The position numbers were made by a program, and so were the translations under genes. A model generated the notes under the pieces. It did no database searches and had not been told where the DNA came from. It worked only from the letters and a program-made list of their open reading frames with translations. Source: Bispira polyomma (Eukaryota). Taken from it: a stretch of DNA of 64,000 bases. Below, piece after piece: positions 1 through 41,724 of this stretch. Every line of letters begins with the position of its first letter. The stretch's first letter is position 1. The stretch lies in NCBI GenBank assembly GCA_965649765.1, contig OZ287752.1, positions 11,470,001-11,534,000 of the forward strand, given 5' to 3'.

Positions 1-18
1 TGGTCTTTACATCCTCAA

Positions 19-579
19 GTGTTCAGACTGATTTGCCAAACCTGGTACACCCCAATGGTGGACATGTTTGCGACCAGTCTGAACAAGAAGCTTACAATGT
101 ACATTTCCCCTGTCCCAGACGATCAGGCTCGGGAAATCGATGCATTGAGCATATCCTGGGAGGCTCTGGACGTCTATACCTTTTGTCCAGTGGTAATCAT
201 CTCAAAGTTGATTCAGAAAATGGTCACCTACAGGTGCAGCATGATTGTGATAGCACCAGGGTGGCCAGGGATGTCGTGGTTTTGGGACCTGGTCGATCTG
301 TCGACCAGACCATCGCTTTGTCTTCCCCTGTGGCCAAGATTGTTAAAGCAGCCATTCGGGAACAGATTCCATCAGAATCTCGAGTTCCTGAATCTGCATG
401 TGTGGCACCTGGATTCCAGATCCAAGAAACCACGGGATTCTCTCATGAGCTGGCAGACAGAATTAACGCACCTCAGAGAGCATCCTCTAGGAAAGTCTAT
501 GAATCAAGGTGGTCCATTTTTCAAGAGTAGTGCGGAGAAAGTAAGGTGGACTTCTCAAAGCCTTCTATCTCCAGCATAG
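19..579 (+). CDS. DIRS pol C-terminal DNA N6-adenine methyltransferase-like domain (5'-truncated by window)
   Basis: DMFAT (DLFA-like), DALSISW, YTFCP (YxFPP-like) and IAPGWPGMSWF motifs, as in DIRS1 MT domains. Confidence 0.85.
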   Translation: MFRLICQTWYTPMVDMFATSLNKKLTMYISPVPDDQAREIDALSISWEALDVYTFCPVVIISKLIQKMVTYRCSMIVIAPGWPGMSWFWDLVDLSTRPSLCLPLWPRLLKQPFGNRFHQNLEFLNLHVWHLDSRSKKPRDSLMSWQTELTHLREHPLGKSMNQGGPFFKSSAEKVRWTSQSLLSPA

Positions 580-1461
580 CTGATTTCCTTATTTATTTAT
601 TTAAGGGAAAAGATCTCAAACCTTCTACAATAGCTGGCTATAGAACTGCTATTGCAGATGCTTTGGGTTCATCTGGGGAAACTGTGTCCAAGTGTCTAGA
701 CTTGAATAGACTTTTGGCCAGTTTCCATAGAGACAAACCAGCAGCTTATCGGTCAATTCCTAGTTGGGATCTGTCTCTTGTATTACTTACTCTCACTAAG
801 GCTCCCTTTGAACCCTTAAGTAAGGCTTCTTTGAAACTCTTGACCTTTAAGACGGGTTTTCTTATGGCCCTAGCCTCAGGAAGGAGAAGGAGTGAAATCC
901 ATTCTTGGACTTTCAACTCCTTCAGTAGGAAGGATGACTGGTCAGAGGTGACTTTTTGTCCTTCTCCAGCCTTTTTGGCTAAGAATCAGCTGGCTTCAGA
1001 TGGTCCTTTGACTATACAGCCAGTGGTGATTCCAGCTTTGAAACCTACTTTAGATCCTTCATTAATTGAGGATAAGTCACTATGCCCTGTTAGATCTCTC
1101 AGATATTATCTTGACAGGACCAAGGGTTTGAGGAATGGTAAGAACCTTCTGTTCATAGCAATTAAGGAAGGTTTTACTAAGGATATCTCTAGGGTGACAG
1201 TGTCCTCTGTGATTCTCTCTTATCAAGTATCAGATAAAGGAGACTCAACAAGTCACACAGGTTAAGGCCCATGATGTAAGGTCCATGGCGGCCTCATTAG
1301 CCTTTAGAGGGGGAGTGACTCTAGATGAGATTATGTCCCCCTGTTACTGGAGATCTCACTCAACCTTTACAAATTTTTACCTTAAGGATGTGTGCTGGCA
1401 CAATGGGGACATTATAAAGTTAGGGCCCATTGTAGCTGCTCAACATATTGTAAACCCTTAA
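420..1461 (+). pseudogene. DIRS tyrosine recombinase, disrupted
   Basis: RASSRKVYESRW..TIAGYRTAI..GRRRSE..LCPVRSL..HDVRS..W..TFTNFY. In-frame TAG at 528-530 and a frameshift near 1205-1260; the C-terminus continues in another frame to TAA 1459-1461. Confidence 0.88.
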
Positions 1462-2343: not shown

Positions 2344-2640
2344 TTAATGCAACCAGCATCAGCTTAACTCAGTCACCCTATGGACAAGTATCTGAAGGTA
2401 CAGAACTTGCACTCACCTGTATCACGGATGAAGCTAGACCTGATGTACCTGTTGTATGGACACTAGGTGGCAACACTATTGATTCTTCTGCTGACTATCT
2501 TGATACTGGAAGATTTAATAGCAATGTGACAAGAAGTGTTCTCATGTTGATAGCAAACAGGATACTCAACAATGAAGAGGTTACATGTGCTTTACAAGCT
2601 GATTCTGGTATATTGGATTCCACAATATTTGATATCACAT
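2344..2640 (+). CDS. Ig-EGF-SEA receptor gene: Ig-like domain exon 1 (first in window)
   Basis: tttag|...T|gtaag, 297 nt, phase 1-1, open: NATSISLTQSP..LTCITDEARP..VVW..EVTC..FDIT. Confidence 0.9.
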
Positions 2641-2914
2641 GTAAGTTCTGATGGTAACCCGTAATCATCACCTTTAACATGTGTAATGTAATTTTGTGTG
2701 ATGTTTATGGTCTCTATGGTTAAGTGGTTAGAGTGTTTGACTTTGGGCCAGAGTATCCCAGGATCAATCTTCCCTACAGGTCTGGTGGATGTACCATTGC
2801 ATAAGGTACTTCATCAAAGCTGTAGCTTGCTGCTATTGGATGTTACTATTTACATTGTATTTGGTAGCATGGCTAGTACATGTATATAACAGTTGGCTGG
2901 ACTAAGTAGAAGAA

Positions 2915-3166
2915 TTTGAATTTGGATATTTAACGTCCACTCCAGTACCTTTTAGTAGGTTATATTGGGATGGGTAGTTGGAAACTCTGGAGGAAACACT
3001 GCATACAGTCGGTCAAGGTTCTGCAGAGAAACCAGCGGCCCACAGTAAGGAACTACCACCTTTCCCACATAGGCATCGACGGGATTCGTACTCACGCCGC
3101 CCAGAGGTGAGAGACCAGTGATTGTGAAGCGCAATGCTTGCTAACCACTAGGCCACTGCGGCCCCT
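2915..3166 (-). mobile_element. tRNA-derived SINE with 15-bp TSD, nested in an older + strand SINE (~2708-3250)
   Basis: Minus strand starts GGGGCCGCAGTGGCCTAGTGGTTAG (A box), has a B-box-like GTACGAATCC and a CAAATT tail. TSD GACTAAGTAGAAGAA at 2900-2914 and 3167-3181. Confidence 0.9.
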
Positions 3167-3732
3167 GACTAAGTAGAAGAACCTAAGCTGTGGGTATAAA
3201 CAGTGAAGTCAGATAAAACCTTATTTGGGGTGACATCACACTAACATTAACCAACTATTACATTGAATGCACCATAAGCTAATTAATATGTAATGCAGTC
3301 ATGTAACTGAAACCTATTTAATCCAGGAAGATCATGAAAGTTCATTGTAATAATATTACCTTAAAATATTTGCACCTAACAGTAACCATAACAGTTAATG
3401 TGGCAATGTTCGTAATACATCTATACTTCATTGTTGAAGGTTTGACAGACTAAAACCTCTGTTTTTGCATGCATGCCAACACACCTGTTTAGATTCTGAA
3501 TTGTTTTAAACTAAAATTTTTGGAGTAAAAAAATATCTTCTGACGACTTTTAAAACATTAAATATAATTTACATGATATTCTTGTTATTTATTGTCAATT
3601 CTAATGTATATGTTTGAGACCTTTAATATTATTTGGGCTTTAAACTTCCTTTACATATGAATTTACCACTGCAGAAGTTGTATTCATTACTTCTATTTTA
3701 ATTACTTTTTATTTATATCTGTCGTATTTTAG

Positions 3733-4032
3733 TTCCAGCCAGGTACATCAATTTATACCGAGATGCCGACAATCCTATCCCTGAAAACACATGGACACAC
3801 TTTGTCTGTCACACTGACACAGCTAAACCAGCAGCTAGTGTGACTTGGACATTATCAGACAATATAAATATAGTTTCAACTGATGATTCCATATACCCTG
3901 GATCTTATGGTGGAGCTAATACATATAGTAATGTAACATTAAAAGTCAACCGGACTGTGCACTTTGGCCAGCTGCAGTGTGCAATCAGTGACAATCCTGA
4001 CGTTAGTAATGTTGAAGTTCTGGAAATCACCT
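3733..4032 (+). CDS. Ig-EGF-SEA receptor gene: Ig-like exon 2
   Basis: ag|..T|gtaag, 300 nt, phase 1-1; FVCHTDTAKPAASVTW..LQCAI. Confidence 0.9.
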
Positions 4033-4396
4033 GTAAGTAAATCAACTAAAGCCATGTTGTTTTGTTTAAAGAGCAAACAAATATTACCATAACATGGTCT
4101 TCAGAGCTAACAGACTAAAGCAAATTTAAACCAAGAAATTTGAACAAGTGACTATGGTTCTTTTGATAAGCGGGTTAACTTTACATGCTAATTGTGCCTC
4201 TCAATTGGTATGTAATGGTATTGACTTACATTGGTATACTCAGTTCTACAAAATATGTGTCTGACTTCACCAATGTTGTATAATTTTAAATGTTAGTAAA
4301 TAAAAAAATACATATTAAATGTTTATGTTTTTTTTATATCATAATATGTACATTAAAAAAAAGTTTGCAACAAAACACAGTGTATCTTCATTCTAG

Positions 4397-4696
4397 TCAA
4401 TGCTACCACAATTTCGATGACCGAGTCTTCTTCCGGACAAATCTTGGAGAATACAGAGGTCACTTTTACCTGTCAGACTGATGAGGCTTATCCAGGCCCA
4501 ACTACTGTTATGTGGTTTGTGGATGGCAAGGCTTTTAAGTCTACTAGTGATAATGTTCATAGTGGTGATTATATGGAAATAACAGTCACCAGTGAACTAA
4601 CTATAACATTGAACAGAACACTGAACAACAAGGATATTGTCTGTCTGGTAGAAGAAGATCATGATGTGAATTCCAGAGTAACATTACATGTGACAT
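4397..4696 (+). CDS. Ig-EGF-SEA receptor gene: Ig-like exon 3
   Basis: ctag|..T|gtaag, 300 nt, phase 1-1; FTCQTDEAYP..MWF..IVCLV. Confidence 0.92.
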
Positions 4697-5119
4697 GTAA
4701 GTAGTCTCAGAGATAAGTTCATTGTCTTACTGGATTCCTGTCATTAATTTTCATCACCCTTCCATTTAGTAATTTATTAAAGAAGTTGTTATTTTAGCAT
4801 CTGGTACACTCGGTCAGTTAAAATCACATGATGAGCTTTCCAGCTTCTGTACTTAAGTGTACTCGGTTGTCTCTATTGATTTGTTTATTTATTCTTAGGA
4901 TAAAACTAAAATAATTTTAAGGACAAAATGCATATTTAGCACAAAAAATTTAAAAAAAATTCAGTTTCACTTTGTTTACAGAACATATATTTGTGATAAA
5001 AGTGTAAAATTTTTGTAACTTAAATTAAACTGATAACAGTACATAATATAATTGTAACATAATAAAAGTTAGCAGTTTTTCATCCAGAAATATTTTAATC
5101 AATATAATTTATATTTTAG

Positions 5120-5416
5120 TTAATGCAACCAGCATTTCAATGACTCGGTCCCCCTCTGGACAAGTTCCTGAGAACACAGAAGTCACATTTGTTTGTGTCA
5201 CTGATGAATCTCTACCAGCAGCTACTGTAGGCTGGTTTGTGGGTGGTGAGAGTACCAGCTCAACTAGTGACTCTGTGGAGAGTGGGTTGTATAATGCAGA
5301 AACAACCAGAAGTCAACTCACAATAACAGTAGACAGGACTCTGAACAGTGAGAATGTACAGTGTATTGTTGGAGAGGACTCTGCTATTGCAGACAAAGCT
5401 ACACTGGAAGTAACAT
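5120..5416 (+). CDS. Ig-EGF-SEA receptor gene: Ig-like exon 4
   Basis: tttag|..T|gtaag, 297 nt, phase 1-1; FVCVTDESLP..GWF..VQCIV. Confidence 0.92.
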
Positions 5417-6030
5417 GTAAGTTATGCATTAAATATTGGGTATGATGTACTAGGATAGGCCTCTCAGCATTTTTTGTACTTGTTGACTGATTATATCGAT
5501 AAATTGAGATAAGTATAAGGATTTACCGAGATAGTATCTTGATTTATTGACTTAGTAGTTCAATTTATGTATTACTATAAATCAACTTACATCACCTGAA
5601 CTATTGACTTACTAAATCTATAATATTAAATTTTGTATTTTACATAAAAGTTTTGAAAGGTTACATATATAAACAATTTCTATTGGTTTACATATTATCT
5701 TGATAAATCAATTTAATTATCTTGTTTTCTTGACTTATTATCTGACAAGTTTTATTATCTCAATCGAGTTGTTATCTTGATTTATCAAGATAATAATATG
5801 ATCAATATAATAAAATAAATTTTATTTGATTCATTCATTCTATTTGTTAACTTATTAGCTTGATATGTCATGGTAATAAGTCAACAAATATACAAATAAG
5901 TTGACAAATATAGAAACATATAATATGGCAGAGTAGAAGAACCGAGTAAGTTGATGAATTGAGATAGGCAAGTCCATTTATTGAGATACGCAAATTGGTA
6001 AATCGAGATAGTATCTCAATAAATCGACTT

Positions 6031-6530
6031 CTACTCCTCCATAGACCACTGGAATAACAGTAAGACACTGATATTCGGGGGTTCTCTCCCCTGTTCAGGT
6101 ACATAAAATTAAATATGGTAATACAAAATTCCTTGTTGTTATTTTGACGACGGACTCACGAAAAGGGACAGAACGGCTACCATAAGCAAAACATCGTAAA
6201 TTTAGTCTGACGTAACATGGCCGACAGTGTTGTGCCAATGATTGTGATTTAGTTTTTTATTTATAATTATTGACATGTACCATGTTGGTATGAAGTAACA
6301 GAAAATCGGCTACTTTATCATATATAAGGAATGAGAGGATGTAGTTATTTTTAACATATTTTGTCTCTATATATGCCGATTTTGATTTACAACGTTTTGC
6401 TTATGGAAGCCTTTCTGTCCCTTTTTGTGAGTCCATTGTCAAAATTACAGCAAGGAATCTCGCTAAATAGGGACAGATTATTCGGTCTAGAAGGTAACCA
6501 ACACTGCTATTCTGTGCAGAGAGAGAGTAG
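6031..6530. mobile_element. Palindromic MITE-like element
   Basis: CTACTC..GAGTAG ends; internal inverted pair GGACTCACGAAAAGGGACAGAA (6152) / TTCTGTCCCTTTTTGTGAGTCC (6413). Confidence 0.55.
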
Positions 6531-6665
6531 AAATGAACTCATCTACAAGGACATCCAGTGTATTGCATACCTCTGCCAAGCAGTGCCAAAAAAGGTATGA
6601 AAATCCTTCTACCTAAATCTCACCTTCCAGTCTTGTGTTTGAACATCATGGTGTCTATGTTTCAG

Positions 6666-6962
6666 ATTTTCCGACAGTGATTTACCTGATTCAGTCTCCC
6701 TCTGGACAAATCCCTGAGAACACAAACCTAACACTGATCTGTATGACTGATGCAGCTCGGCCACATGCCACAGTATTATGGAGTATTCACAACAAAGCAA
6801 TTGCATCCAGTGATGATGTTATACAAACCGGGGTGTTTAATGGAGAGATAAGCAGCAGTTTGTTGTATGTTACAGTTAACAGGACACTGAATGGTGTAGA
6901 GGTGGTCTGCAGTGTGGAAGGTGTACCCGGTGTAAACAATGCCACTGCTCTGGATATTGTGT
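6666..6962 (+). CDS. Ig-EGF-SEA receptor gene: Ig-like exon 5
   Basis: ttcag|..T|gtaag, 297 nt, phase 1-1; LICMTDAARP..LWS..VVCSV. Confidence 0.92.
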
Positions 6963-7395
6963 GTAAGTTTGTTATAATTAAATGGTGCTCACAAATCGAG
7001 TCGCGACGTTGTTGTTTTTTAGAATTCTTTTTTTTGTATTATTTTAACAAATTACTTGATCTACTTATTCACAGGATTAGGACAGGATATTATCTACATG
7101 TATATTATTATCAAACATGTGAAACTTACAGTTACAAAAGTAAGTTCTGTTTCTTGTCACTTTTGGAAAATGAATTGTCCTACAGAAATCAATATGTAAA
7201 AAAACATCCTTTTGCAAAAACTTTTCAGTTTTGACATCCTTAACCCACAAATTATGTCAGACATGTACTTGTCAATCCTTCCATACATACTTCTGTTACT
7301 CAAATTCACTCACATCTGTCTGTTACTGTAAAAATTATATCAGCAAGCAACACACTACAATTCGGCAGAATTCTTTGTTTATAATCCTTGCACAG

Positions 7396-7692
7396 TTACC
7401 ACCACAACAGTCACTGTGACTCAGTCTCCCCAAGGTCAAGTTCCTGAACACTTAGAAGTGACCTTCACCTGTGTGACAGATGAGGCTAAGCCTCCGTCTT
7501 CTTTGGCATGGTTTGTGGATGGAAACTTTGTGACCTCCAGTGGGGAAGAAATCATGGAAGTAATGTACGATTCACATGTAGTAAAGAGCACTTTAACGCT
7601 GACAGTGGATGAAACAGATGACAATAAAGAAGTGATGTGCAGTATTATTGACGTACCACACATCACTGATAAAACTGTCCTGGATGTTTCAT
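7396..7692 (+). CDS. Ig-EGF-SEA receptor gene: Ig-like exon 6
   Basis: cacag|..T|gtagg, 297 nt, phase 1-1; FTCVTDEAKP..AWF..VMCSI. Confidence 0.92.
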
Positions 7693-7929
7693 GTAGGTAA
7701 CATGGGGTCAAACTATCTAATTGGGATTGTTACATTCAAACATATTGAATGAGTAGCCTATATTTAATTTCACTGGCAATTTTGTCTACTTAATTTATCC
7801 ATAAATTGTATAATAATTCATGTTTCTATCATGGTTATAATAGGGCTTTATTGAATTAAAGAAGTTAACACTGGTGTGATGTATGCACAATGAATGAATC
7901 GGAGATGTCACACATGAGCAAATTTTTGT

Positions 7930-8762
7930 TATTAACCTCGCCTTTTAGGAGAGGTTATTGTTTTCGATCTGTGTGTTTGTGTATGTGTGTGTGTACAAAC
8001 CATTATTACACAAACTCTACTATATCAAATGCATTAAATTTACAGATATGTTTTAAAATGGGGACCTCTACATTTGTGCCAAATTTCATACAAATCGTTT
8101 GTGAACTGTAGCTTTAAGAGAAGATTTTCTTTTTTTATACACAAAACTACCACTGAAGATCACTTTCCTTCTACGCCATATACAAGAAACGAAGACAGCG
8201 TTCGGCAAACCGAAGCTACACTAACTTCGCGATTGGGGATCATATGCATACAGCGAACACCGAAGACACCGCTCGGGGATGTATCACCTAATTTGTATCC
8301 AGCGAAGACAGCGTTCGGCAAACCGAAGCTACACCAACTCCGAGATCGGGGATATATACAAAATATGATGATGTCATCAATACGTCATTTACGCACTATT
8401 TCTGATTATGACGTCACAAGCTTTTTTGTGACATCATATTGGAGTTTATATATGGAGTATATCCGCTAATGTAATACATGAAGCATATCAGCCAGAAACG
8501 GCCCATTTTATTGTATGTAAAGTATACTTTACTTTAAAATATGAAGTTAGGGTTATTATGTTGAATATATACCCCATTTTTAATACATTCCTCTTCTAAA
8601 AATCAAATACAAATGGTGTGTATATTAAACATAATAACCCTAACTTCATATCTAAAAGTAAAGTACACCTTACTCCATATATTAACCCCAATCGCCAATT
8701 TGAGAGTACGTGATTAAAATTCCGGGCGAGGTTTTGAAGTCTCTGACTGCTTTCCTCTTGTT
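7930..8762 (+). mobile_element. Non-autonomous Helentron-associated (HINE/DINE-like) element
   Basis: Subterminal inverted repeat ACCTCGCC..GGCGAGGT, (TG)-rich microsatellite, internal tandem copy (8190/8303), long hairpin 8519-8668, TCTTGTTT end. Confidence 0.7.
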
Positions 8763-9035
8763 TAATTTGTTAAATTTTTTTATTTGTTGGATTTTTGGTG
8801 TTCAAATTTATCATTGGACAATAGCTATATATGTATTCTGACTTCATTAGAGACTTTAGATATTAGAGACTTAAATTTTAGAATCCATTCTTAAAATTAA
8901 TAAATTTACTAGGGTTTTATTGGCCAAGCTCACTGAAATGCAGATTTTATTACAATTCTACTTAAATATGATATTTTACTAGGTTATGAAAAAAGCATTG
9001 TATGTTTTTAATAGCTTGTAAAATTTTGTGTTTAG

Positions 9036-9146
9036 ATATTGACTGTGAAGAGTCTACCTGCTTACATGGAGGTACCTGTAGCGAGCTGAGTAATGACTTT
9101 AGGTGTGACTGTGTGACTGGTCATACTGGGAAAACCTGCAGCTTTG
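9036..9146 (+). CDS. Ig-EGF-SEA receptor gene: EGF-like exon
   Basis: tttag|..G|gtaag, 111 nt; IDCEESTCLHGGTCSELSNDFRCDCVTGHTGKTCSF, canonical 6-Cys EGF spacing. Confidence 0.92.
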
Positions 9147-9436
9147 GTAAGACAGGATTATCGTGTAATGACTGATTTCACAGATTGACTATAACACAAT
9201 TATATCAAAATCAATCGTGCTAAAGTAAAACACATAGGTTTTGTTTTAAGGTAAGTTTATGGTATTAGTTTTAAAAATCATATTCTAAACTAATAGAATA
9301 TGTAATATGCTAATAAAGGCTGGTTTGCTGCATTAGTAGGTTGCCAGTTGTAGTGTCATACACAACGATGGTTTTAAAAGCATTGTTAAACCCTAACTAA
9401 CATTCTGTATTTTAATATGATCTGCCAATGTTTCAG

Positions 9437-9553
9437 ACTGTTCCTCCATAAACAACTGCATTGATTGCAATGATGCCAATAATAATGGGGTTGCATCATG
9501 TACTGAGTGTACAGCTGACTATGACTTGGTGAGTGGGGCATGCATTGCACAAG
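9437..9553 (+). CDS. Ig-EGF-SEA receptor gene: CxxC Cys-rich (furin-repeat-like) exon
   Basis: ttcag|..G|gtagg, 117 nt, phase 1-1; DCSSINNCIDCNDANNNGVASCTECTADYDLVSGACIAQ. Confidence 0.85.
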
Positions 9554-10012
9554 GTAGGTAGTCAAACTATTACTATTGTGTTATCTCTGTTCAAATCTCG
9601 GCCCTTGTGTCTAGGTAGGGTATTTACCCACAGAAGTACAATGTACCTACCATAATTTTTTAATAGTTGTTTTTCGTAAAATGAGCCAATTAACAAATAA
9701 ATGTACACTAATAGAAAGAATAATCTCTTAAACCCATTTTTATTATATTTGCTATATACATGTACACTTTTAGATACACTTTGGCTTAGTCTTATTCCAG
9801 AACAAGCAAATAAAAAGAAAACCAAATGGAAGTACCTGCCATAATGATTTGATAGTTGTCTTTTTCAAAATGCACCAATAAATGAATAAAAGTTACTAAA
9901 TAAAATAAACAATTGATGTGTAATATTTTAAAGTCTTGTACTTTTATAGATTTAATTTGTCACAAAATGTTTACAATACAAGCAACAATTGCTCTTTTTT
10001 TGTTATAACTAG

Positions 10013-10125
10013 AATCTACTGCTCTTGAATGCACTGTGGCCATTGCTAATAAGAAATACAGCGAAGAGCTGACGGATAAGTCATCTCCTGAGTACAAGAC
10101 ACTGGCAGAACCACTGATAGAAGGG
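10013..10125 (+). CDS. Ig-EGF-SEA receptor gene: SEA1 N-half exon
   Basis: ctag|..GGG|gtaag, phase 1-0; NKKYSEELTDKSSPEYKTLA matches the SEA helix motif Y/FxxxLxDxxSxxY/FxxL. Confidence 0.88.
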
Positions 10126-10459
10126 GTAAGTGTGGAACTACTAAGGGAGGAACATTATGTTGAAACATCAATATGTATCCAAGTGATATATTTTGTGAAA
10201 CAACATATTGCAATATACTGATCAATTATATATTACTCTAATTTTCATAATTTTTTACACTTTGTTAACTTTCTTACAAGATCCTTGATTCCGATTTTAA
10301 CTGAGTAAGGATTTGCTCATGGTCAGAAACTCACTTTTATTTTTAGGTATTAATTGTAGATGATCCAATATTTTACAAATTATACATATTGTAAATATGA
10401 CTGGAATATTGCAATGTAGTGTAATACGATTTTCAGGCACAATACTCACTAACTACACC

Positions 10460-11050
10460 TGTCTATGTCCATATTTGTCTTACTGAGTGTTTACATCCCT
10501 ACTCTACATAAATACTGTCCATATCTGTGTCCAATGTTTATATCCATGCTCTACATAAATACTATATCTATGTCCATTTCTGTGTCCACTGTTTACATCC
10601 CTACTCTACATCAATACTATATACTGTCTATGTCCATATCTGTGTCCAATGTTTACATCCCTGCTCTACATAAACACTATATATTTCAGTCCATATCTGT
10701 GTCCAATGTTTACATCCCTGCACTATATAAATACCGTCTGTGTCCAATCTGTGTTACTGAGTGTTTACATCCCTACTCTACATCAATACTACATACTGTC
10801 TTAATAATAATGTCCATATCTGTGTCCAATATTTATATCTGCTCTACATAAATACTATATCTATGTTCATATCTGTGTCCAATGTTTACATCCCTACTCT
10901 ACATAAATAATATATCTATGTCTATCTGTGTCCAAAGTTTTCATCCCTGCTCTACATAAATACAGTATACTGTTTATGTCCATATTTGTGTGACAATGTT
11001 ATGATCCCTGCTATACATAAACCACATCTGTGTCCACTGCACTGTCTACA
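10460..11050. repeat. Intronic minisatellite, ~50-60-bp degenerate unit
   Basis: About 10 copies of TGTCCATATCTGTGTCCAATGTTTACATCCCTGCTCTACATAAATAC-like sequence. Confidence 0.85.
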
Positions 11051-11374
11051 TTCTTGCTCCATGGAAATATCATTACATCAATGACGGTCATTTTTATGCT
11101 AGGCATCTTCTAAAGTGGAACAGGAGAATCGATAAACCAAGAGATAATAAATACAGCCAAGTCATAAGGAAAAATGTAGCCGCGCATGATCACAAAACAA
11201 GTAGGTTGCGTAAGCAAATTGATAAAGATGGGTCATATAGGTACAATTTAAATTATTTCAGTAATTGTTTTCATGCAACAGAAGTTTGTTGATTTGTTGA
11301 GACAATGGTGTTTAGTTATAAATATAGAAAATAATTTCTAACATTAAAGAGCTTATTCACTTTTTAAAAATTAG

Positions 11375-11579
11375 ATGAAGAAAACCTGCGCGTGCCAAGT
11401 ACTCGATGTGGAATTTAAGAATGGCAGCATATTAGTGGAATTTACACTTGAAGTACCCAAGACTACATCTGAGGAGGAAATCCAGTTTGAAGTCTTATCT
11501 GCTATAAGTACTGGAACTTTTATACAAAATAACACTGTTGATATTGAGTTGGATCCAGAACATGTGACATTTGACAATG
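11375..11579 (+). CDS. Ig-EGF-SEA receptor gene: SEA1 C-half exon
   Basis: ttag|..G|gtatg, phase 0-1; FKNGSILVEF, the SEA autoproteolysis motif. Confidence 0.88.
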
Positions 11580-12425
11580 GTATGTATAGCTCGCCGAATG
11601 GTAAAAACCATGGCAGTTTCGAAACAGCCACCTATTTGCGCAGGCCATTTCAGGACCTACAAAATTTATTTTTTTTTAAATTTCATGTTCAATGAATGCA
11701 AACATAGTTTATTAGAGGAGTATTTCAGTCATTACACTAGATCTTGTTGTATTAGTTTGTCTACATTACCATCATAACATGGAAAATCAATTGCAACATA
11801 TATCTATATCTATATATTAACATGGTTTTAACCATTTAAAATGGGTTTAAACAATTAAAAATGTCAACTATTACATTAGAACAGAGTAGGTTATATAACA
11901 TATCAATTTATAAATTCACAGTAAATATTTACATATAGTCTTTTATATACAGTCTTTCAAATTACTAATTGCGATATAAAGCCTTCAAATATATTGATGT
12001 TATTACCATTTTGTTTATGGGTTATTTGTGTTATTGAATTAAAGAATCTTTATTAGTATTTCTGTTTCATTCAAATTGATTTTTGTAAAAAATCTTTGTC
12101 CCTGCTTGCTATACATTTAACATTTAAAAGGATTAATTTAACTGTAGTTGATTAACTCTCAAAAGGTATATCAATCCTAAAAGTTAATCAGCTGGTATAT
12201 AAAAACAGACATATAATGTCTGAATATGTCAATAATGCCTCATAAATTATTTCGAAGATGGATAAGTGATTATTCAACATTTAAGTTTGGAAAATTAGCA
12301 AATACTATAATTTAATCAGAACACCAGTTTGCGGTAAATAGAACAGTTGATTCTGTTAGTCATGAAAAGCAAACTCATTTGGAAAGTTTATGACTAATAT
12401 CTGTCTTCTTATTTTGTACTTTCAG

Positions 12426-12446
12426 AAACCCTGATATTAGAAAATG
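12426..12446 (+). CDS. Ig-EGF-SEA receptor gene: 21-nt micro-exon (ETLILEN)
   Basis: Strong acceptor ttttgtactttcag| and donor G|gtaaga; phase 1-1. Confidence 0.65.
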
Positions 12447-13260
12447 GTAAGACTTCTTTTCCCCCTAATATTTCCAAGATTGCTGTTTTGTATTAAACAT
12501 CTGCTGGGTATGCATCCTAGTATGATCATAATGAGTTTGTAGCTTTACATCTAAGTAATTTGTCATTGATAAACATTGATTATAATTTAAAAAAACAATT
12601 TCTGTAGTGGCTGATGTTATAATTTAGCACAGGGTGTTGTAGTTTGGCACAAAAGTTTAACCTTTATTAAACCACATTTCAAAATTATACTGATGGACCA
12701 AAATAAGGTTAAACTGATAAAAATTGATAAATTTACTCTTTAAACAAATATGTTTTTAATTTTGATTTAAAAATATTAACAGTTTGACAGTACATGATTT
12801 TTTGGTTGTGCCAAATTATAACTGTTGTGGCAAATAAAAACGGCAGGCACTAGAGGTGAATACTAATATACCAGCCAAGTGACAAATGGTAGTTAATTCT
12901 TCTGCATTGAGTGTTTCCCCTGTTGTCATCTTTGATATTGGTCTCACATGGCCTAGTAGTTAAGGAGTTTGTCTGGTGATCAGAAAACCCTAGTTTGACT
13001 CCTCTTTGGGGGTATTTATCTGCTGATCAGAAGGTCCTCATTCAGTTTGACTCCTGTTAATGTTACAAGGTTTGTTGGTGGGATAACATCCTCAGACAAG
13101 TTATTGTCCACTGATGATAAGTCTGGTTATGTCTTCCTTTCGGAGAATGAGGTACCTTAGAGAATGATATACCAATAAGGCTCTAGTATATAAATTCATC
13201 AATGGTGATAATATGTTTCAGGTGTTAACATTGTGTCAATACTGCTTTTTAATGTTTCAG

Positions 13261-13352
13261 CTTATAAATTTATCAATGGAAGCTTTACAATCATTAACAA
13301 GAATTTGGATGAAGTTGATGAGAATGATCTTGCAAGTAAAGTTATAGCTGCG
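13261..13352 (+). CDS. Ig-EGF-SEA receptor gene: SEA2 N-half exon
   Basis: tttcag|..GCG|gtaagt, phase 1-0; YKFINGSFTIINKNLDEVDENDLASKVIAA. Confidence 0.8.
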
Positions 13353-13706
13353 GTAAGTCTGCCAAATACTAGTTGATGTGTCACTGACTGTGGGTTTTGT
13401 TAATTAACATTGCTAATTATATCATGTTCAATTTGTGTTAGTTGTAAGTAAATATAAGAAAAAGTGTGTAAAAAGGAAGAATTTATTAATTAAAGAGTAC
13501 ACCTAGGTAGTAGGGTAGGTAGTAGGGATTCATTTCACCTTTTCCCACTGTGGAACTGTGGCAGAGGTAAGTGTGCTACTGGGTCCCCTTCAAGTTTCGT
13601 AAGGACATATTGTGATGACATTTTAACTAGCATAGCAGCATGTTTAAGCAAGAAATGTTCATCTGCATCAATATGTATTACTCAAAATGTTGATTATTCT
13701 CTACAG

Positions 13707-13926
13707 TTTGAAGATGACTTCTGCCCTAGTTATGAGGAGGTTAGATTTTGTGCAGTGACTAGCCTGTCTTTTACCACTGGGAGTATCATTGTATTGTTTA
13801 CCATGTCTCTGGAAGTATCGATAGACCAAAGCCTGTTCTTTGACCTGTGGTACAGTGATGTTAAAGATGGCACATTCACACTGGAGGGCTACACTATAGA
13901 CCATGAATCCTTGTCATTTGGAAATA
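13707..13926 (+). CDS. Ig-EGF-SEA receptor gene: SEA2 C-half exon
   Basis: ctacag|..A|gtatg, phase 0-1; LSFTTGSIIVLF..GYTIDHESLSF. Confidence 0.85.
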
Positions 13927-14169
13927 GTATGTCTATATGTGACCATTTCGATATGTGTTTAATATCATTGTTTAAACAAATTGCATAGAGCATAATTATT
14001 AATATAACTTAACAAGTTCACTGGAACGTGGTAATGATAAATAAATTGCAATACGAGTAAAAGTAAGTGATTAATACTGGTCTATGGACATAAACTTTCG
14101 AATACATTTGATTTTAATATATTTTTAAAGTTAAAATACACAGTCATATTGCAAAATATATGTGTGTAA

Positions 14170-14658
14170 TACCCTGGTCCCACCGGCCGTCACGTAAACA
14201 GTCGTGACAAAAATCAATTTGCGTAGGGTTTGCAGGAGCTGACATAATATACATAAACATACATAACCTGACGTGAGAGATGACACGCAAGAAATTTATA
14301 ATTTCAAACCGTTTGAAATTTGGACACGCAAGAGATGCAAAAGTATGACGTACTAAAACGTGGATATGCGTCACAGTGTGTACATGTGCGTCATTATGAC
14401 GTCCTTTTACGTGTATTTGCGTACTCATACATGTCATACAGGGGTTAAAATACGTACTTTGACGCGAACTTATGCATCCCCTGCGAGACTTGACAGCTTT
14501 TGATGTACTAATACATGAATTTTAACATCTGTTGACGCCTTTAACGTGAAGAAAAGCAATATATTTGGGATTTGCATCCCAAACTTTTGCAGCGAATATA
14601 TTTACACGGCCCTTGCGTGACTAACCTAACCCAACGTACATCCGGTGGGACCAGGGCA
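14170..14658. mobile_element. PIF/Harbinger-type MITE
   Basis: TIR CCCTGGTCCCACCGG / CCGGTGGGACCAGGG, flanked by TAA/TTA. Confidence 0.75.
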
Positions 14659-14771
14659 TTAGAATGAATAATAATACAACATGTCAAATCATATCCCAAC
14701 AAAAATATGAAAGTGTGATATGTAAGAAAAATAGCAATACTATGTTATAACTTCATTATTATCTTTTTCAG

Positions 14772-14786
14772 GGACGGCTAACCCAG
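14772..14786 (+). CDS. Ig-EGF-SEA receptor gene: 15-nt micro-exon (RTANP)
   Basis: atctttttcag|GGACGGCTAACCCAG|gtaagc; phase 1-1. Confidence 0.65.
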
Positions 14787-15405
14787 GTAAGCATAAGTAG
14801 TAGGAATTATTTCTTTTTCCTAACAATGATTTGTTATCCTGCTAACACTTTTAATACACTATTGGACAATTAAAGTAGACATCGAGGTAACAATGTGGAT
14901 GATATTTTGATATAATGAATATCTTCACCAGTGGGATGGTATCAGTCGTGACTATGTGGATAACAGATTTACTCATTTTTGTCACAGTTCTTGTTATGTC
15001 GATGGTGTTTGTAATATAGTGATCATGAAAAAACTGTACCTGTACTTCCTGCCTGTATAAAACTACAATAAAATACACAATGTACTTCAGTGCAGAAAGA
15101 TATTCTATTTTAAAGCAACACTCACTGAGAAAACAGTAACCCAAGAGAAAACTATAATTTTTAAACAGTGAAATCTGCTGTTTTGAGGAACTGAAGGACA
15201 ATACAATAATGCTGTTGATTTCTAGCTGACATCATAGGGGTCGAAAGCATTACCATTTAATATGTGACACTATCTGTCATATATCACTCTTTCTGTTTGT
15301 AGGACATTCTTCCTATTAAAGGAATGACACATATCACTTTTATAGTGTAGTAACACCCTATCGTCTTCTATGTCACCACCATATATTATGTATTATTACC
15401 AACAG

Positions 15406-15531
15406 ATTTAGATCCTTTATCAAAAGGAGAAATCATTGGTATAGCAGTTGGATTGCTGTGTGGCATGGCGGCCATAATCGCCTTCACAATAGTCATGATA
15501 CATGTCATCAGAAAAAGCACAAATACACAAG
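15406..15531 (+). CDS. Ig-EGF-SEA receptor gene: transmembrane exon
   Basis: aacag|..G|gtatg; LSKGEIIGIAVGLLCGMAAIIAFTIVMIHVIRK, a hydrophobic helix followed by basic stop-transfer residues. Confidence 0.9.
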
Positions 15532-15782
15532 GTATGATCTTACATGACTTTCAACTAGTTCCATTTGCTGCTGCTTAAACCTTTTTGGATGTATATATAT
15601 ATATGTATGTGTAAATATTGAATCTGATTCAGTATTCCTTAAAGTACACTAAATTCAAATGTCTTTTCTTGACCTTGGTGTGTAATAAGTGCATTTTATG
15701 ATTCAGAATAATGTACAATAATAAAAAGGTTTTAACATAGTCACTGCATTAGATTTTCTTTGCTTTTTTTAATACAATCTAG

Positions 15783-15897
15783 AATCACCAACTAACCACA
15801 GGATAAAGAACCATATCAGTTCTGACAGACATATTAAGTCAAAGAAACGAAAGAAGCAAAATGACCTTTGGAAGTCTCTACCAGAAGAAAGCACAGG
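15783..15897 (+). CDS. Ig-EGF-SEA receptor gene: cytoplasmic exon 1
   Basis: ctag| acceptor; open frame ESPTNHRIK..KSKKRKKQNDLWKSLPEEST; the phase-2 donor gtttga is weak. Confidence 0.65.
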
Positions 15898-16621
15898 GTT
15901 TGAGTTAAACATTGTCTTTTATTGAAGTATAGAAGTTTTTATTTTACCCAACAACCATTTCTGGTGGATAGGTACTAGGTGTGTATCACAACAACAACAA
16001 ATAAAATGGCCAATATTTAGGATTTGCTGAAATGTGACACATGAAGACAACCAAAAATTTGACTTCTTGTCTTGTCTTTGACTGACCAAAGAAAGATTCC
16101 TTTCTTGCCTAAATTAAGAGTAAAACATATTTCACTCATGGCTGTTGGGTTCAACATCTCTGATGCTATTGTATGAAGGTGGTAATAGATACATATAATG
16201 TTTTCAAAAATAATTTTGTTTAAAAGATCTCCAGCAAATTTTGCAGTTAATAAAGAGCCAGTGAAATTTTATACTACAAGGGATAATTTACTGAAAGACG
16301 TTTTAGTCGTAAGGTACACTAGAATGAAAAAATAAGGGATTCTTATTTATTTCCCTCAATGCACTACTAAAATGAAGACAGGCAGGTTATAGAACTAACT
16401 TTTCATATAACATCTGCCTCATGCTTTACTGAAACAACTTTTGATTGGTGTGGAACATTAGTGCCATTGACACCAGTCTTTTATTAGTCAGGTATTTCAG
16501 GTTTATTAATTTAGCTAAAGTACCGTTGATGCATTATTGACAAGTAAGTAATTACATCGAAACAACCAGTGATTCAGTGTTATATTGGATTACCTATGTA
16601 CTAGTACTCCAATTCTTTCAG

Positions 16622-16718
16622 AAGAAAAGGGCAATACCATGAGAATATCCTACAACCAAGGGACCATTTCTACAGAGCGTCTCCTAAATATAACATGGAA
16701 AATGCATGGATGTACTGA
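16622..16718 (+). CDS. Ig-EGF-SEA receptor gene: last coding exon
   Basis: ctttcag|, phase 2; RKGQYHENILQPRDHFYRASPKYNMENAWMY*. Donor cag|gtaatg 25 nt after the stop; AATAAA at 17989. Confidence 0.6.
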
Positions 16719-26794: not shown

Positions 26795-27308
26795 ATATGC
26801 AGTAAAAACACCTATGAACACATCTGAATAGTAAACATATCTATATAGTGCACACATTTAAATAGTGAACACATCTGAATAATAAACCCATCTGAATGAA
26901 TAGTGAACACATCTGAATAGGGAACACATCTGAATAGTGAACACATCTAAATGAATAGTGGTCGCCCTTAACAGTAAACACCTCTGAATAGTGAACACAT
27001 CTGAATAGTGAACACATCTGAATGAATAGTGAACACATATGAATAATGAACATATATGAATAGTGAACACATCTGAATAGTGAACACATCTGAATGAATA
27101 GTGAGTACATCTAACTAGTGAATACATCTGAATGAATAGTAAACATCTCTAAATAGTTAACACCTCAAAATAGTAAACACCTCTGAACAGTGAACACCTC
27201 TGAAAAGTGAACACTGTTGAATAGTGAACACCTGTAAATAGTGAACGCCCTTAATAGTGAACACCCCTTCATAGTGAACGCCCTTAATAGTGACACATTT
27301 GAATAGTG
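26795..27308. repeat. 17/21-bp satellite (GTGAACACATCTGAAT[GAAT]A), left part
   Basis: Visible tandem units; the array resumes at 32110. Confidence 0.92.
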
Positions 27309-30300: not shown

Positions 30301-32109
30301 TAGAACCGGTTTCTAGAAGCTTAGGGGTTTCCCCAAATCTATAAATAGCTCACTCCAGCAGAGTGTAAAACCATTAGTACTAACTAGACCGGTTTTTCTT
30401 CCACACACCACAATGTCCCCATATGTAACAATAGTAACTGACAGCTTCCTGCACTCAGGTTTACAAAGCTAGAAATTAGTCATAAATTTGAATACTGCAG
30501 AAAGTGACTGATAAAGTAGCCTTGTTGAAAGATATTTAAGGCTCAACTTTATTGTATTTAGGAAAATCAGTATGCACCCCTATTGGTGGCAAAATAATGA
30601 CTTCTAATGTGTTTAGCATGATTAATGTAATTATAATATAATCTGATATATTATTTAAACAATAATGTTAAATTTAAATGAATAAATATACTATTTAGAT
30701 CAATGGTGAGAAAAACAAGCCCAAGCAAGGTTACTATTTCTGTCCTTCCATTAACTGCAGCAAATGGCCATTATAATCCAGTAAAAATTTAAAGTAAATG
30801 ATCAAAATTTTGCTTCAAGTTTCATTCGCCAAGTACATATTTTATTTCTTGTTGTAGGCTGTAGAAGTTTGAAACACTTATGCCTTTAAAGGCTAAGCAA
30901 ATTTATCATACTGACAGCAAGAGAGTAAGTTACTACAGTTACCAAATAAATTTTTCAATAACTTTTTACTTTTTTCAGTTTTACAGCAAATTTTAATAGT
31001 AATACTTCATTGTGGAGCTTTCTATTATCAGATAGATTGTACAATTTACCAGTGTGAACACACCTGCAAAAGATATGCTATATATTTTAAAAACCAAGAA
31101 TCAGCCTTAAACTAAATAACAATTGCTGCAGATTTATTACATTTTTAATCTATCTGTGTTCAATCAAACCACTTATTTTTTGGCTTAGGAATAATTTTTA
31201 ATATTTTTATCCTGTAGTGACATTATTTAAAATATATATATCCCCCATATATATACATACATTGTAACACTTCAAATAGTTCAAAACAGAATGCTACATT
31301 AGTCAATAACATCATATTGTACTATTTGAACCCTCTACTATTAACAGCAACTGGCTTGTACTAACTGGACCCTCTCTACTTCAAAGAACCTTTAATTGGT
31401 CCCGCCACAACACATACACATCTTCTATATACTACAAGGACAGGTAACACCCATAAATAGCCCTCCAACATCAAACATACTTTAAATTGATTCGTCCAAA
31501 ATACACACACACATGTTCTATATAATACAAGGGTAGATACCTAGCAACAAAACAATTAAAACACTAGTAACAACACACACAAACACACACACTATTTGTG
31601 CACAAACCAAGGACAAGTAGTGGGGGTGGGGGGGGAGGGGGGAATTGGCCAGTTGCCAATTACATGTAATTAAGGCACATGCATAAACACAGCCTATGTA
31701 AAAAGATGAAAGACAATTAGGCCTTGGGTTAATTGGTGATGACTCATGCCACTCACACCACAGTACAGAGTTATAAGAATAAGAACACAATCAATGAAAG
31801 GTATTGCCTTTGAGGCTGTGTATTGTATGGCAAGTCATAGCTGTCAATCATATTCTCCTTAGCAACAGGCAGTGGTTTTTATAAAAACCTAAATAAGTCA
31901 TCACAAATATATCAGATCAAGAAGCCAATTCAACGGCAGCATATACACAACACATAATGTACCCATACCAATTTTCAGGTCACAATTTCTTCATTTACTG
32001 AGAAAATTTGCTGTCATCAAACGGTTGCTAGGGAACAAGACCTCTAGTAAAGTTAATACAGCATACGTAACTTCAGCTAAAGCTGAAGTAACGTCATCTG
32101 CCGTAAAAA
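27309..32109 (-). mobile_element. Non-coding Helentron-family element inserted in the satellite
   Basis: Minus-strand 5' end TTTTTACGGCAGATGACGT plus hairpin (32070-32109); 3' end TCATCTGCCG-AA-GTGGCCCCCTGGGCCAC-TCTTATCTTGT (27309-27348). Both nearly match the termini of 54073-59226. Internal ~146-bp repeats at 27450-27920. Confidence 0.82.
29604..30430 (-). mobile_element. Solo LTR (Gypsy-like), 827 bp
   Basis: TGTTAC...GTAACA termini, 4-bp TSD ATAG on both sides; minus-strand TATATATAA (~30190) upstream of AATAAA (~29691). Confidence 0.85.
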
Positions 32110-33178
32110 TCTCTAAACAGTGAACACCTCTGAATAATAAACACCTTTGAATAGTGAACACATCTCAATGATTAGTGAACACATTTAAATGAATAGTGAA
32201 CACATCTAAATAAATAGTGAACATCTCTGAATAATGAACATATTTGAATAGTGAACATATTTGAATGAATAATGACCACATATGAATAGTAAACACATCT
32301 GAATGACTAGTGAGTACATCTAACTAGTTAACACATCTGAAGAAATAGTGGGCACATTTGAATGTTGAACACATTTAAATAATAAACAAATCTGAATGAT
32401 TAGTAAAAAGATTTGAATGGTGAACATATGAGAATGAATAGTGAACACTTATAAATAAATGGTGAACATATTTACATAGTGAACACATCTGAATGAATAG
32501 TGAACACATCTGAATGAATAGTGAACACATCTGAATGAATAGTGAGCACATCTAAATAGTAAACACATTTGAATAAATAGTGAACACATCTGAAAGGTGA
32601 ACACATCTTTAATAAGTAAAAACATCTAAATACTAAACACAACTGAATGAATAATAAACAGATTTCAATAGTGAACATATCTGAATGAATAGTCAACACG
32701 TCTGAATGAATGGTGGACACATTTGAAAAGTAAACATATCTGAATGAATAATGAACACATCTGAAGAAATAGTGAACATCTCTAATTAGTGAACATATCT
32801 GAATGAATAGTGAACACGTCTGAATGAATGGTGGATATATTTAAAAAGTGAACATATCTGAATGAAATAGTTAACACATCTGAATAGTGAACACTTCTCA
32901 ATAGTGAACACCTCTGAACAGTGAATACCTCTGAACAGTGAACACCTCTGAATAGTGAACACCTGTAAATAGTGAACGGCCTTAATAGTGAACGCCCATT
33001 CATAGTGAACGCCTTAATAGTGACACCTCTGAATAATAAATATCTCTAAACAGTGAACACCTTTGAATACTGAACGCCTTTGAATAGTGAACACCTCTGA
33101 ATATCGAACGCACTTAATAGTGAACACCTTTGAATAGTGAACATCCTAAATAGTGAACACCTCTGAATAATGAACACC
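32110..33178. repeat. 17/21-bp satellite, right part
   Basis: Same GTGAACAC unit as 26795-27308. Confidence 0.92.
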
Positions 33179-33471
33179 CCTCCATGTTTTGTCTCCATTG
33201 CATTCATACTAGGGCTTACCCATGTGAAGTGAACACTTCTCTACTAATATTGTTTTCCCCTAAACAAGGGGAACCTAGTGAACCTAGGTTCATTAAATGG
33301 ATAGAATGTTGATAAAATTTTGCAATACAACTGGGTAAAATCTAGGGAAAGCAATTTTCTTAATTTTATATGCACCCAATCTAAGAAATATTTCTTTGGT
33401 GTGACCTATAATTCAATAACAAAACTGATATGAAGTTACTGACCAAATAATGATGAGAATGTGCTACATAC

Positions 33472-35931: not shown

Positions 35932-37570
35932 ACTGTACAGCCGAACTCTATAAAACGATGACACTTTCTCTGTGACCACTAACTAACCACCCAACACTAT
36001 AATGGTCTTTTTCTTCTCAGTTTTAGTTGCCTATTTCAGGAAAATGTATGTGTGCAAAATAGAAAAAAAAAAAACAACAAATGAATGGGGTATACTGTTT
36101 TCTTAAAGGCTATTAAGTCAGCAGTTTTATCGTTTACATTAAAAGCACTATAATTAGCTGAACTAACGGCTTGAATGTGTTTTCATTTGACACACAATAA
36201 ATTGAATCTTTTATGTTGTGTCAGCTGTTTAATCTGCCTGTGTAATTTTTCAAGCAAGAAGCTGTCAAGTGCTAAATATGATTTCAGTCATTACATTTGA
36301 TGTTCATAAATGTTCTTTTTATCCATTCAGATTCTTTCATTATGTTTTAATTAACACAAAGTTGGAAAATCTATGAATTCACATTTAAAGGAGCAACCTG
36401 CATTTGTAATGACAAACTCAAAGGAAAATAGTGTACTCCCTGAAGAGATGTATTCTAAGTAAAATGTGTTATCTGTAATCTGCATGTCACATATAAAATT
36501 AATCATTGTTTTCAGGTACAGAATGACATGTTGACTGGGTGATACTCTTATTCACTGAAGCTTCCTTCTGTCAAATTGGTCCACTAAAATATATAACAAT
36601 CTGCTGGCCACGGCAGAATAAGCATTACTTAGATGACTACATTGTGGATTTATGATATATTTTCAATTGAGCTTTGTTCACATGCTTACCAATACGACAT
36701 ATCCGTACTGATCTGTACCAACATTACATACTGACGTACTGATCCTCAGGATGTCAAATTTAAAGTTTTTGGTTTTCAAACTATAGTTATCTTAATTTTG
36801 AAGGGAGGGCTACGGTGGCCTAATGGCGAGAAGAAGCATTAGTTTCACAATCACCAGTCTCTCACCAATGTAGGTTTGAATTTAGTGTGTTGCTTCAGGT
36901 GGGAATGTTTGTCCAGTACTTACCATAGGCCAGTGGCCATATAGTGTCTGCACTGGTTTCTTCCACCATTGAATCTGACCGTCGTCATATGACCTAAGCT
37001 TTTAAAAACAATGTTAAACCCAACTATATTTAAGTTCAATTTCTGAATCATTTTAGATACCAAACCAGCCTCTGTTTCCTGTTGTATATATGTATTTTCA
37101 TTAAATTCTCTATGGCAGTCAAAATTGCTGACTGCCTGATTTTTTCAGTATACACAATCTGTACTGGTATACATACTGCAGGGATTAGAACTCTCCAAAT
37201 AAATGCATAAGGGTGCCATTATTTTACACACTGGTGATTAGTACTGAGGTATGCCATGCTCGCATGCATGTAAACGTAGCTTTACTTCCAATAATTTTTT
37301 GACAAACCTATTAACCTCAGGTGAAGAGGGCCAACCAAGCTAGTCAAACTACAACACTCGTGACCTTAAAGGGTCTGCCTGACTTGCCCTCTATCATATC
37401 TATGACCCCTTTGAAGGTCAAACTCATATAATTTGACTTGAATGAAACTATCAGTTGCATGCTGCAAGGCATTTCAGTCGCACAAATTTACTATTTTGAG
37501 TATCAACAATTTTGTTATTGGTAACTGGCAAATTACATAAACCATATATAACCAATCACATTATTTTTTG

Positions 37571-41704: not shown

Positions 41705-41724
41705 CTGAAAATTATTTAAATGTC

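Follow-up and report, generated by a model that had tools for sequence, protein, structure and literature searches.

Gene Structure and Domain Order

The stretch of Bispira polyomma DNA considered here, a window of 64,000 nucleotides (G000:C5:11470001-11534000, where C5, like C1, C3, C4, C6, C8, and C13 below, is a chromosome label), contains the 3' part of a predicted type I receptor gene. As judged from its exons, this gene is a chimera, in which a head of immunoglobulin (Ig) domains from a receptor cluster is carried on the EGF-to-membrane cassette of transmembrane-mucin-type genes. The parts are known and their combination is unusual. An earlier note on this DNA had recognized the exons and most of the domain order; its reading is incomplete in that the chimeric origin was missed.

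The 17 phase-compatible, stop-free exons that the note had proposed between positions 2344 and 16718 hold up well. An acceptor AG is found at 17/17 exons and a donor GT at 16/16 internal exons, and, with a start phase of 1, they give a frame of 1,005 aa whose sole stop is the terminal one. The note had also recommended walking upstream for a signal peptide and more Ig exons, and the walk was rewarded with 12 exons (G000:C5:11453582-11466062) that encode the signal peptide and 12 Ig domains. Exon 1, at 11453582, combines a hydrophobic leader (judged by eye) with a V-type Ig domain, and eleven Ig exons follow it. The whole predicted gene comprises 29 exons and 2,248 aa, with one stop and AG/GT at all junctions, and its product would be ordered as signal peptide, V-type Ig domain, 17 further Ig domains (18 in total), EGF domain, six-cysteine module, two SEA domains, one membrane helix, and a 77-aa tail (Table 1).

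Pfam recognizes a C2-set_2 Ig domain in 6/6 Ig exons of the window, five of them above the cut-off, and an EGF domain above the cut-off; no Fn3 match was found in the gene's window exons. The V domain of exon 1 is predicted to adopt a V-set fold (predicted local distance difference test score, pLDDT, 88.6), and its model has 332 Foldseek matches at E<=0.001, with P0, VHH, and CD8 at the top. The membrane helix stands out as one 19-residue hydrophobic peak (Kyte-Doolittle 2.57), with the stop 77 residues later. Together with the joined SEA domains described below, these results bear out the Ig-EGF-CxxC-SEA-SEA-transmembrane (TM) architecture of the earlier note. Its observation that the ectodomain has no proline/threonine/serine (PTS) mucin tract is also correct: the ectodomain is made of Ig exons throughout, and P/T/S residues reach at most 46% in any 50-aa stretch. 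The description of the Ig domains as rich in N-glycosylation sites should be dropped, as the six Ig domains of the window hold 10 sequons where shuffling predicts 8.7 (p=0.37); for the whole ectodomain the excess is marginal (38 against 29, p=0.04).

No splice joints were found in three contig sets of unrecorded kind, a result that bears neither way on expression.

Origin of the Ig Head

Dozens of V-type Ig genes form a receptor cluster at about 10.6-27.4 Mb of G000:C5, the same chromosome that carries the window gene. Of 79 genomic matches scored with the V exon of this gene, 69 were retained; 54 are at E<0.001, 65 lie on C5, and 7 contain stops. Genome searches with the C exon and a C2 exon gave 110 and at least 150 matches, respectively. 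The cluster genes in four examined regions have a V-C-I-I head identical in order to that of the window gene, which follows the cluster pattern of one Ig domain per phase-1 exon, a V-C-I-I head, and C2-set repeats. Judged by this organization, the Ig part of the window gene belongs to the C5 cluster family.

The cluster genes end differently. Four cluster TM exons lie directly 3' of Ig exons and are followed by a short tyrosine tail, an ending that the window gene lacks while sharing the head and the C2 repeats. Of 73 candidates scored with the cluster tail exon, 70 count as matches, 33 of these at E<0.001, and the tails carry YENV, YEM, or EYxxL motifs. In the 20 of 70 tail exons that were inspected, xEYxxL occurs in 19, TxYxxV in 7, and a strict immunoreceptor tyrosine-based inhibitory motif (ITIM) within the exon in 4; the ITIM consensus, [ILVS]xYxx[ILV], was taken from PMC9546547, which, like the other papers below, is cited from excerpts of its text. 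Two further motif matches were dropped from these counts since they lie in intron sequence.

The V domain can be aligned with fourteen database proteins. One of these (46%) matches nothing in G000 at E<=1e-8 except the V exon of the window gene, and the V family is therefore present in at least one other assembly. Only C30, W41, and C103 are invariant in an alignment of 26 rows, and C103 is followed by Thr in the window gene and by various residues elsewhere.

A related arrangement is seen at G000:C6:14.465-14.478 Mb (minus strand), where cluster-type V-C-C2x4-TM exons are followed by two tyrosine-kinase-like exons. Their catalytic-loop and DFG-position motifs are altered, and the gene possibly encodes a pseudokinase receptor.

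Origin of the Membrane Anchor

Relatives of the SEA exons are found on C1, C3, C4, C8, and C13, and the cassette is 41-53% identical to that of the mucin-type genes. EGF, six-cysteine module, SEA1, SEA2, and TM are contiguous on C8 and at C13:18.91; in the C3 gene, the EGF exons sit between its two SEA domains. The boundaries of the cysteine-module exon and of all four SEA exons are shared in 3/3 genes (C8, C13, and C3), and the position of the TM acceptor coincides in both mucin-type genes that were checked (2/2). The six-cysteine module has homologues only in front of SEA1: in three mucin-type genes and in two sister copies of the window gene. In a short tree (75 columns), SEA1 halves group together (support 99/97), as do SEA2 halves (98/94).

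Upstream of its cassette, the C3 gene has a 308-aa tract of 86% P/T/S, the C8 gene a 314-aa repeat tract, and the gene at C13:18.16 a 591-aa tract; no clear PTS or repeat tract is present upstream in the C13:18.91 gene. Ig domains had 0 matches among the 3,815 open reading frames (ORFs) of seven SEA-gene regions.

Exon shuffling is the likely origin of the chimera. All Ig and EGF exons are flanked by phase-1 introns, and it is in an intron of this phase that the head meets the anchor, in agreement with such an origin; the 41-53% identity to the mucin-type genes points to an old graft. Both donor families persist in this genome, and their introns match in position, which makes this a traceable case of exon shuffling.

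Two of the SEA paralogues are MUC4-like (AMOP-VWD-C8-EGF) genes. They lie on the minus strand at C1:34.99-35.02 Mb and C13:18.95-18.98 Mb and have VWD, C8-3, EGF repeats, and one Gly-Ser SEA domain, whereas VWD and C8-3 domains were not found in the 29-exon gene. The VWD domain of the C1 gene carries a GDPH motif; the two genes possibly combine two self-cleaving modules in one protein.

Table 1. Exons of the predicted receptor gene within the window
Feature	Position in window	Strand	Basis or remark
Exon 13 of 29, C2-set Ig domain 13	2344..2640	+	Splice frame, Pfam
C2-set Ig domain 14	3733..4032	+	Pfam 20.4 bits, slightly below cut-off
C2-set Ig domain 15	4397..4696	+	Splice frame, Pfam
C2-set Ig domain 16	5120..5416	+	Splice frame, Pfam
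C2-set Ig domain 17	6666..6962	+	Splice frame, Pfam
C2-set Ig domain 18, final cluster-derived exon	7396..7692	+	Next intron (phase 1) is the inferred shuffling junction
EGF domain, opening exon of mucin-type cassette	9036..9146	+	Pfam
Six-cysteine module, two CxxC	9437..9553	+	No Pfam family above cut-off
SEA1, first half	10013..10125	+	Pfam partial, hhalign
SEA1, second half, G|SILV (Gly1969 of 2,248-aa model)	11375..11579	+	Alignment
Linker micro-exon, 21 nt	12426..12446	+	Conserved, splice sites included, in the two sister copies
SEA2, first half, shorter and more divergent than SEA1 counterpart	13261..13352	+	hhalign
SEA2, second half, G|SIIV (Gly2083), predicted beta-hairpin turn	13707..13926	+	Alignment, half-domain model
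Juxtamembrane micro-exon, 15 nt	14772..14786	+	Kept in both sister copies
Single transmembrane helix and tail start	15406..15531	+	Hydropathy
Tail exon with basic stretch	15783..15897	+	Undetected in A1
Last coding exon, four tyrosines, stop	16622..16718	+	Polyadenylation-like hexamers 131-339 nt downstream

Sister Copies and Selection

The sister copies differ from the window gene (18 Ig domains) in the length of the head: copy A1 lies in tandem upstream and has 10 Ig domains, and copy B, at C5 16.93-16.96 Mb, has 20. The Ig and SEA exons are in the same order and phase in 3/3 copies. In the first three exons compared, copy B is closest to A1; from the fifth on, it is mostly closest to the window gene. 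The duplicate flanks are 95-97% identical up to 17.014 Mb. This mosaic, together with the matching flanks, is as expected of unequal crossing-over in a segmental duplicate. There are no assembly gaps in the 424 kb examined; a second haplotype may be involved instead of a true duplication.

A1 and B use a different V exon, and both retain a deleted remnant of the V exon of the window gene. Their V exons have 72% protein identity and a synonymous divergence (dS) of 0.26, and the next intron is 94.9% identical; such divergent exons beside a near-identical intron suggest exon-limited conversion. A candidate signal-peptide exon in A1 and B turned out to be the end of an Ig exon read in another frame.

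When A1, the older copy, is the reference, the cassette has a ratio of non-synonymous to synonymous differences (pN/pS) of 0.33 (p=9e-6), and two Ig exons have one of 0.35 (p=5e-5). Measured against that copy, these ratios show purifying selection on both halves of the gene.

The SEA Domains and Their Gly-Ser Motif

Split domains of this kind are easily overlooked. SEA1 and SEA2 are each divided across two exons; the Pfam SEA model scores 22.6 bits in exon 9 of the window, a half domain, against a cut-off of 26.4 bits and has no match in exons 10, 12, and 13. A genome search with the same model found six other loci and did not pick up the split domains of this gene. When the halves are joined, SEA1 aligns with vertebrate SEA domains at an hhalign probability of 96% over 82 columns, with Gly-Ser in register, and SEA2 does so at 80% over 37 columns; SEA2 aligns with SEA1 at 93% over 88 columns. 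This comparison is not fully independent, because it was a SEA profile that led to the vertebrate protein. All eight paralogous SEA domains (8/8) score above each of 200 shuffles. A protein search with the SEA profile returned one turtle mucin-like protein (E=0.005), and a search with the SEA2 exon had no match among longer proteins, each of the two being weak as a negative; sequence searches of the PDB with a SEA exon and the SEA profile gave 0 matches.

The motifs quoted in the earlier note are present as given, FKNGSILV in SEA1 and FTTGSIIV in SEA2, and both GSILV and GSIIV fit the hairpin motif G|S[V/I]xV. Among aligned SEA halves, Gly is conserved in 16/16 and Ser in 15/16, the exception being SEA2 of copy B, which has Gly-Arg. 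The two-base change behind this Gly-Arg is also present in one read contig, perhaps from the assembly's own source. Gly-Ser is thus found in 6/6 SEA1 and 9/10 other SEA halves, at 21-53% identity to the halves in the window. Since the sole exception is in SEA2, SEA1 is the better candidate cut site.

The excerpted literature describes mucin SEA domains as being cut at G|S[V/I]VV while they fold; the halves hold together afterward, and force unfolds them (PMC13643018, PMC10556640). The cleavage site is a turn between two strands (PMC9478142, PMC13643018), and in the half-domain model of SEA2, Gly-Ser is placed at the turn between two predicted strands.

Comparison with Known Systems

Siglec, SIRP, and CD22-type clustered receptors have a V-set head, C2-set repeats, and tyrosine-motif tails, and the parent cluster resembles them in all three. 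The window gene shares the V-set and C2-set domains; it has a canonical two-cysteine V domain without the conserved F-strand Arg, which in Siglecs binds sialic acid, and it has lost the tail motifs, including the ITIM, and gained a SEA anchor. In nephrin, SYG-2, and Kirrel, a C2-set Ig array is followed by Fn3 (nephrin) or directly by the TM, whereas in the window gene the array is followed by EGF-SEA-SEA; the match to SYG-2 is at E=0.016. In ADGRF5 (Ig-Hepta), Ig domains share a single ectodomain with a SEA module that is cleaved; the co-occurrence of Ig and SEA is given in the title of Abe et al. (2002), as cited in PMC13197933. It is a seven-helix G-protein-coupled receptor with a GAIN domain, and its SEA domain is distal to two Ig domains rather than being a membrane anchor. 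The window gene, in contrast, has no GAIN domain or seven helices, with one helix and a stop 77 residues on.

IMPG2 is a proteoglycan that is not known to have an Ig array and carries the motif in only one of its SEA domains. It is like the window gene in being a single-pass protein with two SEA domains, and the available text reports cleavage at the GSxxV-bearing one (PMC9478142); GSxxV foretold which IMPG SEA domain is cut (PMC9478142). The SEA transmembrane mucins (MUC1, MUC3A/B, MUC12, MUC16, and MUC17; PMC13643018) are alike in having a juxtamembrane G|S SEA domain, EGF, a single helix, and a short tail, and the cassette in the window is homologous to PTS-bearing genes of the same genome. 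The window gene has the juxtamembrane SEA and the single helix with a tail, but in place of the PTS domain it has 18 Ig domains, and its SEA domains form a tandem pair after a six-cysteine module.

The parent cluster is also like Hydractinia Alr (PMC9546547), an invertebrate family of divergent single-exon V-type Ig receptors, clustered over several megabases and bearing tyrosine-motif tails. Alr proteins, likened here by description only, have one to three Ig-like domains and an Fn3-like segment, and SEA is not mentioned in the excerpt (PMC9546547). The place of the Fn3-like segment before the TM is taken by SEA-SEA in the window gene.

The literature covered (on invertebrate Ig plus SEA, Ig combined with a SEA pair, exon shuffling in mucins, and Ig receptor expansions among lophotrochozoans), seen in part, with few subscription papers and without an architecture database, describes neither the architecture nor the cluster, in keeping with the earlier note's statement that the combination has no named match. 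In its workings, the gene would have an anchor like that of MUC1-type mucins and a head like that of clustered Ig receptors, and it belongs to none of the mucins (for lack of a PTS domain), the Siglecs, the nephrins, ADGRF, and Alr.

Proposed Mechanism and Alternatives

On balance, we lean toward a single-pass shuffled receptor in which SEA1, and likely also SEA2, would self-cleave, allowing the Ig rod to be released as a decoy or a fuse. The N-terminal V-type domain would bind a partner, either a microbe or a neighboring cell, at the tip of the long Ig rod. SEA1 would be cut at G|S during folding and its halves would stay associated, as in MUC1, until pulling or shear parted them and about 1,950 residues were shed with the bound partner, sparing the membrane. 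SEA2 may be a partly redundant second cut site. With the tyrosine-motif tail of the family lost, the chief role of the protein would be that of a releasable decoy or an adhesion fuse, not that of a signalling receptor. If cleavage is true, the mechanical fuse of mucins has come under a variable Ig recognition head.

Several results weigh against this reading and should be kept in mind. The direction of the shuffle is taken from copy numbers, three grafted against dozens of standard genes, and not from a rooted tree. The likeness of SEA2 to known SEA domains spans those 37 columns alone, and a fold search with the SEA2 half-domain model found a SEA structure weakly (2e7v, E=1.9, Z 3.6). Neither motif has V at the third position, where L or I deviates from G|S[V/I]VV, and the Asn before the Gly-Ser of SEA1 forms a glycosylation sequon, which might affect cleavage. 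Copy B is otherwise intact despite its Gly-Arg, so cleavage of SEA2 would be dispensable or absent. As to selection, the ratio of non-synonymous to synonymous rates (dN/dS) of the V exon exceeds 1 in 3/26 comparisons, none of them significant, and pN/pS against copy B (0.42 and 0.72) is not significant either (p=0.08 and 0.28). Finally, intron 12 of the window gene is filled by a 6.3-kb retroelement, and the same intron measures 358 bp in copy B.

The alternative that survives best, which we regard as unlikely, keeps the same chimera and takes the SEA pair as a rigid stalk, uncut or cut without release, in a tall adhesion molecule or spacer of the cell coat whose Ig repeats replace the mucin brush. 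The tolerance of Gly-Arg in SEA2 of copy B would suit a stalk, as would the Ig counts of 10, 18, and 20, which recall length variation in mucins, and certain SEA domains stay uncleaved according to the excerpt of PMC9478142. However, a purely structural role would have no obvious need of the serine, and Gly-Ser has been held in nearly all SEA halves at 21-53% identity. If cleavage holds, the three copies, with two intact sites, one Gly-Arg variant, and 10, 18, or 20 Ig domains, would form a natural series for the function of SEA cleavage.

Less likely again is a Notch-type force switch, in which a pull on the Ig rod would open the SEA pair and juxtamembrane and intramembrane proteolysis would free the tail as a signal. 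SEA domains with a structured neighbor act as proteolytic switches (PMC6586460, in the text available), and here the EGF domain and the six-cysteine module precede SEA1. The tail itself has a lysine/arginine run and four tyrosines; a signalling role for the tyrosine tail of the earlier note is weakened, as no ITIM, YxxL, or YxN motif occurs in the tail (0 matches to the ITIM consensus) and the tail is unconserved between copies. All of its changes relative to copy B are non-synonymous (six, against 0 synonymous), and in A1 the middle tail exon, which holds the basic run, was not detected, so that the last exon of A1 would be read in another frame. A tail that lacks these motifs and varies among copies favors the releasable decoy or fuse over the stalk, the switch, and a pair of separate genes.

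That last possibility, which we consider very improbable, holds that no transcript joins the Ig exons to the SEA cassette, or that this copy is silent, leaving a broken Ig gene beside a truncated mucin gene; the recent, unstable duplications and the insertion in intron 12 would agree with it, but order and phase are alike in all copies, a cluster-type TM or tail exon is absent from these regions (the stretch from the final Ig exon to the EGF exon, in 3/3 copies), none of the 263 intronic ORFs of the 29-exon gene is a further Ig, TM, or tail-type exon, both halves are under purifying selection against A1, and the micro-exons are retained in the sister copies, so that the split into two genes against which the earlier note had cautioned is not borne out.

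Beyond the preferred releasable receptor, a wider reading is possible, if on the doubtful side: the C5 region may be a lophotrochozoan locus like the leukocyte receptor complex, built independently, with diversifying V-type Ig receptors by the dozen, whose common recognition ectodomain would be coupled to a tail with tyrosine motifs, to a tyrosine-kinase-like domain, or to a mucin anchor that cleaves itself, three outputs in all. The window gene would then represent the break-away decoy class, and heads would be swapped by unequal crossing-over and exon-limited conversion. A large lophotrochozoan cluster of Ig receptors with tyrosine-motif tails bears on recognition diversity in invertebrates, which lack adaptive immunity.

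Other Features of the Region

The 5' end of the first SEA2 exon is duplicated over a short stretch at window positions 13187-13206. The duplicate has its own AG and is out of frame with the main exon; this AG resembles the acceptor used by the mucin-type paralogues. In copy B, at C5:16937.8k, two partial tandem copies of the 5' half of an Ig exon lie ahead of the intact exon. The 5' side of the duplicated segment is marked by an F-box/LRR exon that occurs twice (C5:16905-16910k and C5:11286.8k, 98% identity), and its closest named matches are from annelids (72-74%), followed by molluscs (up to 72%).

Mobile elements and repeats are also present. By eye, and without a Pfam call, the element in intron 12 is the 3' part of a DIRS-type element (window 1-1460 and upstream to C5:11466.4k) with reverse transcriptase/RNase H-like and recombinase-like ORFs; it is not in copy B. 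Broken ORFs at about 40600-45100 of the window (minus strand) look like a second recombinase-type retroelement, again by eye. A 919-aa ORF at 56360-59116 (plus strand) has PIF1 helicase and endonuclease domains and is Helitron-like. Tandem repeat arrays lie at about 26800-27300, 32100-33200, and 37570-39750 of the window, the last with a period of about 31/62 nt, and they are longer than those in the duplicate region near 16.97 Mb.

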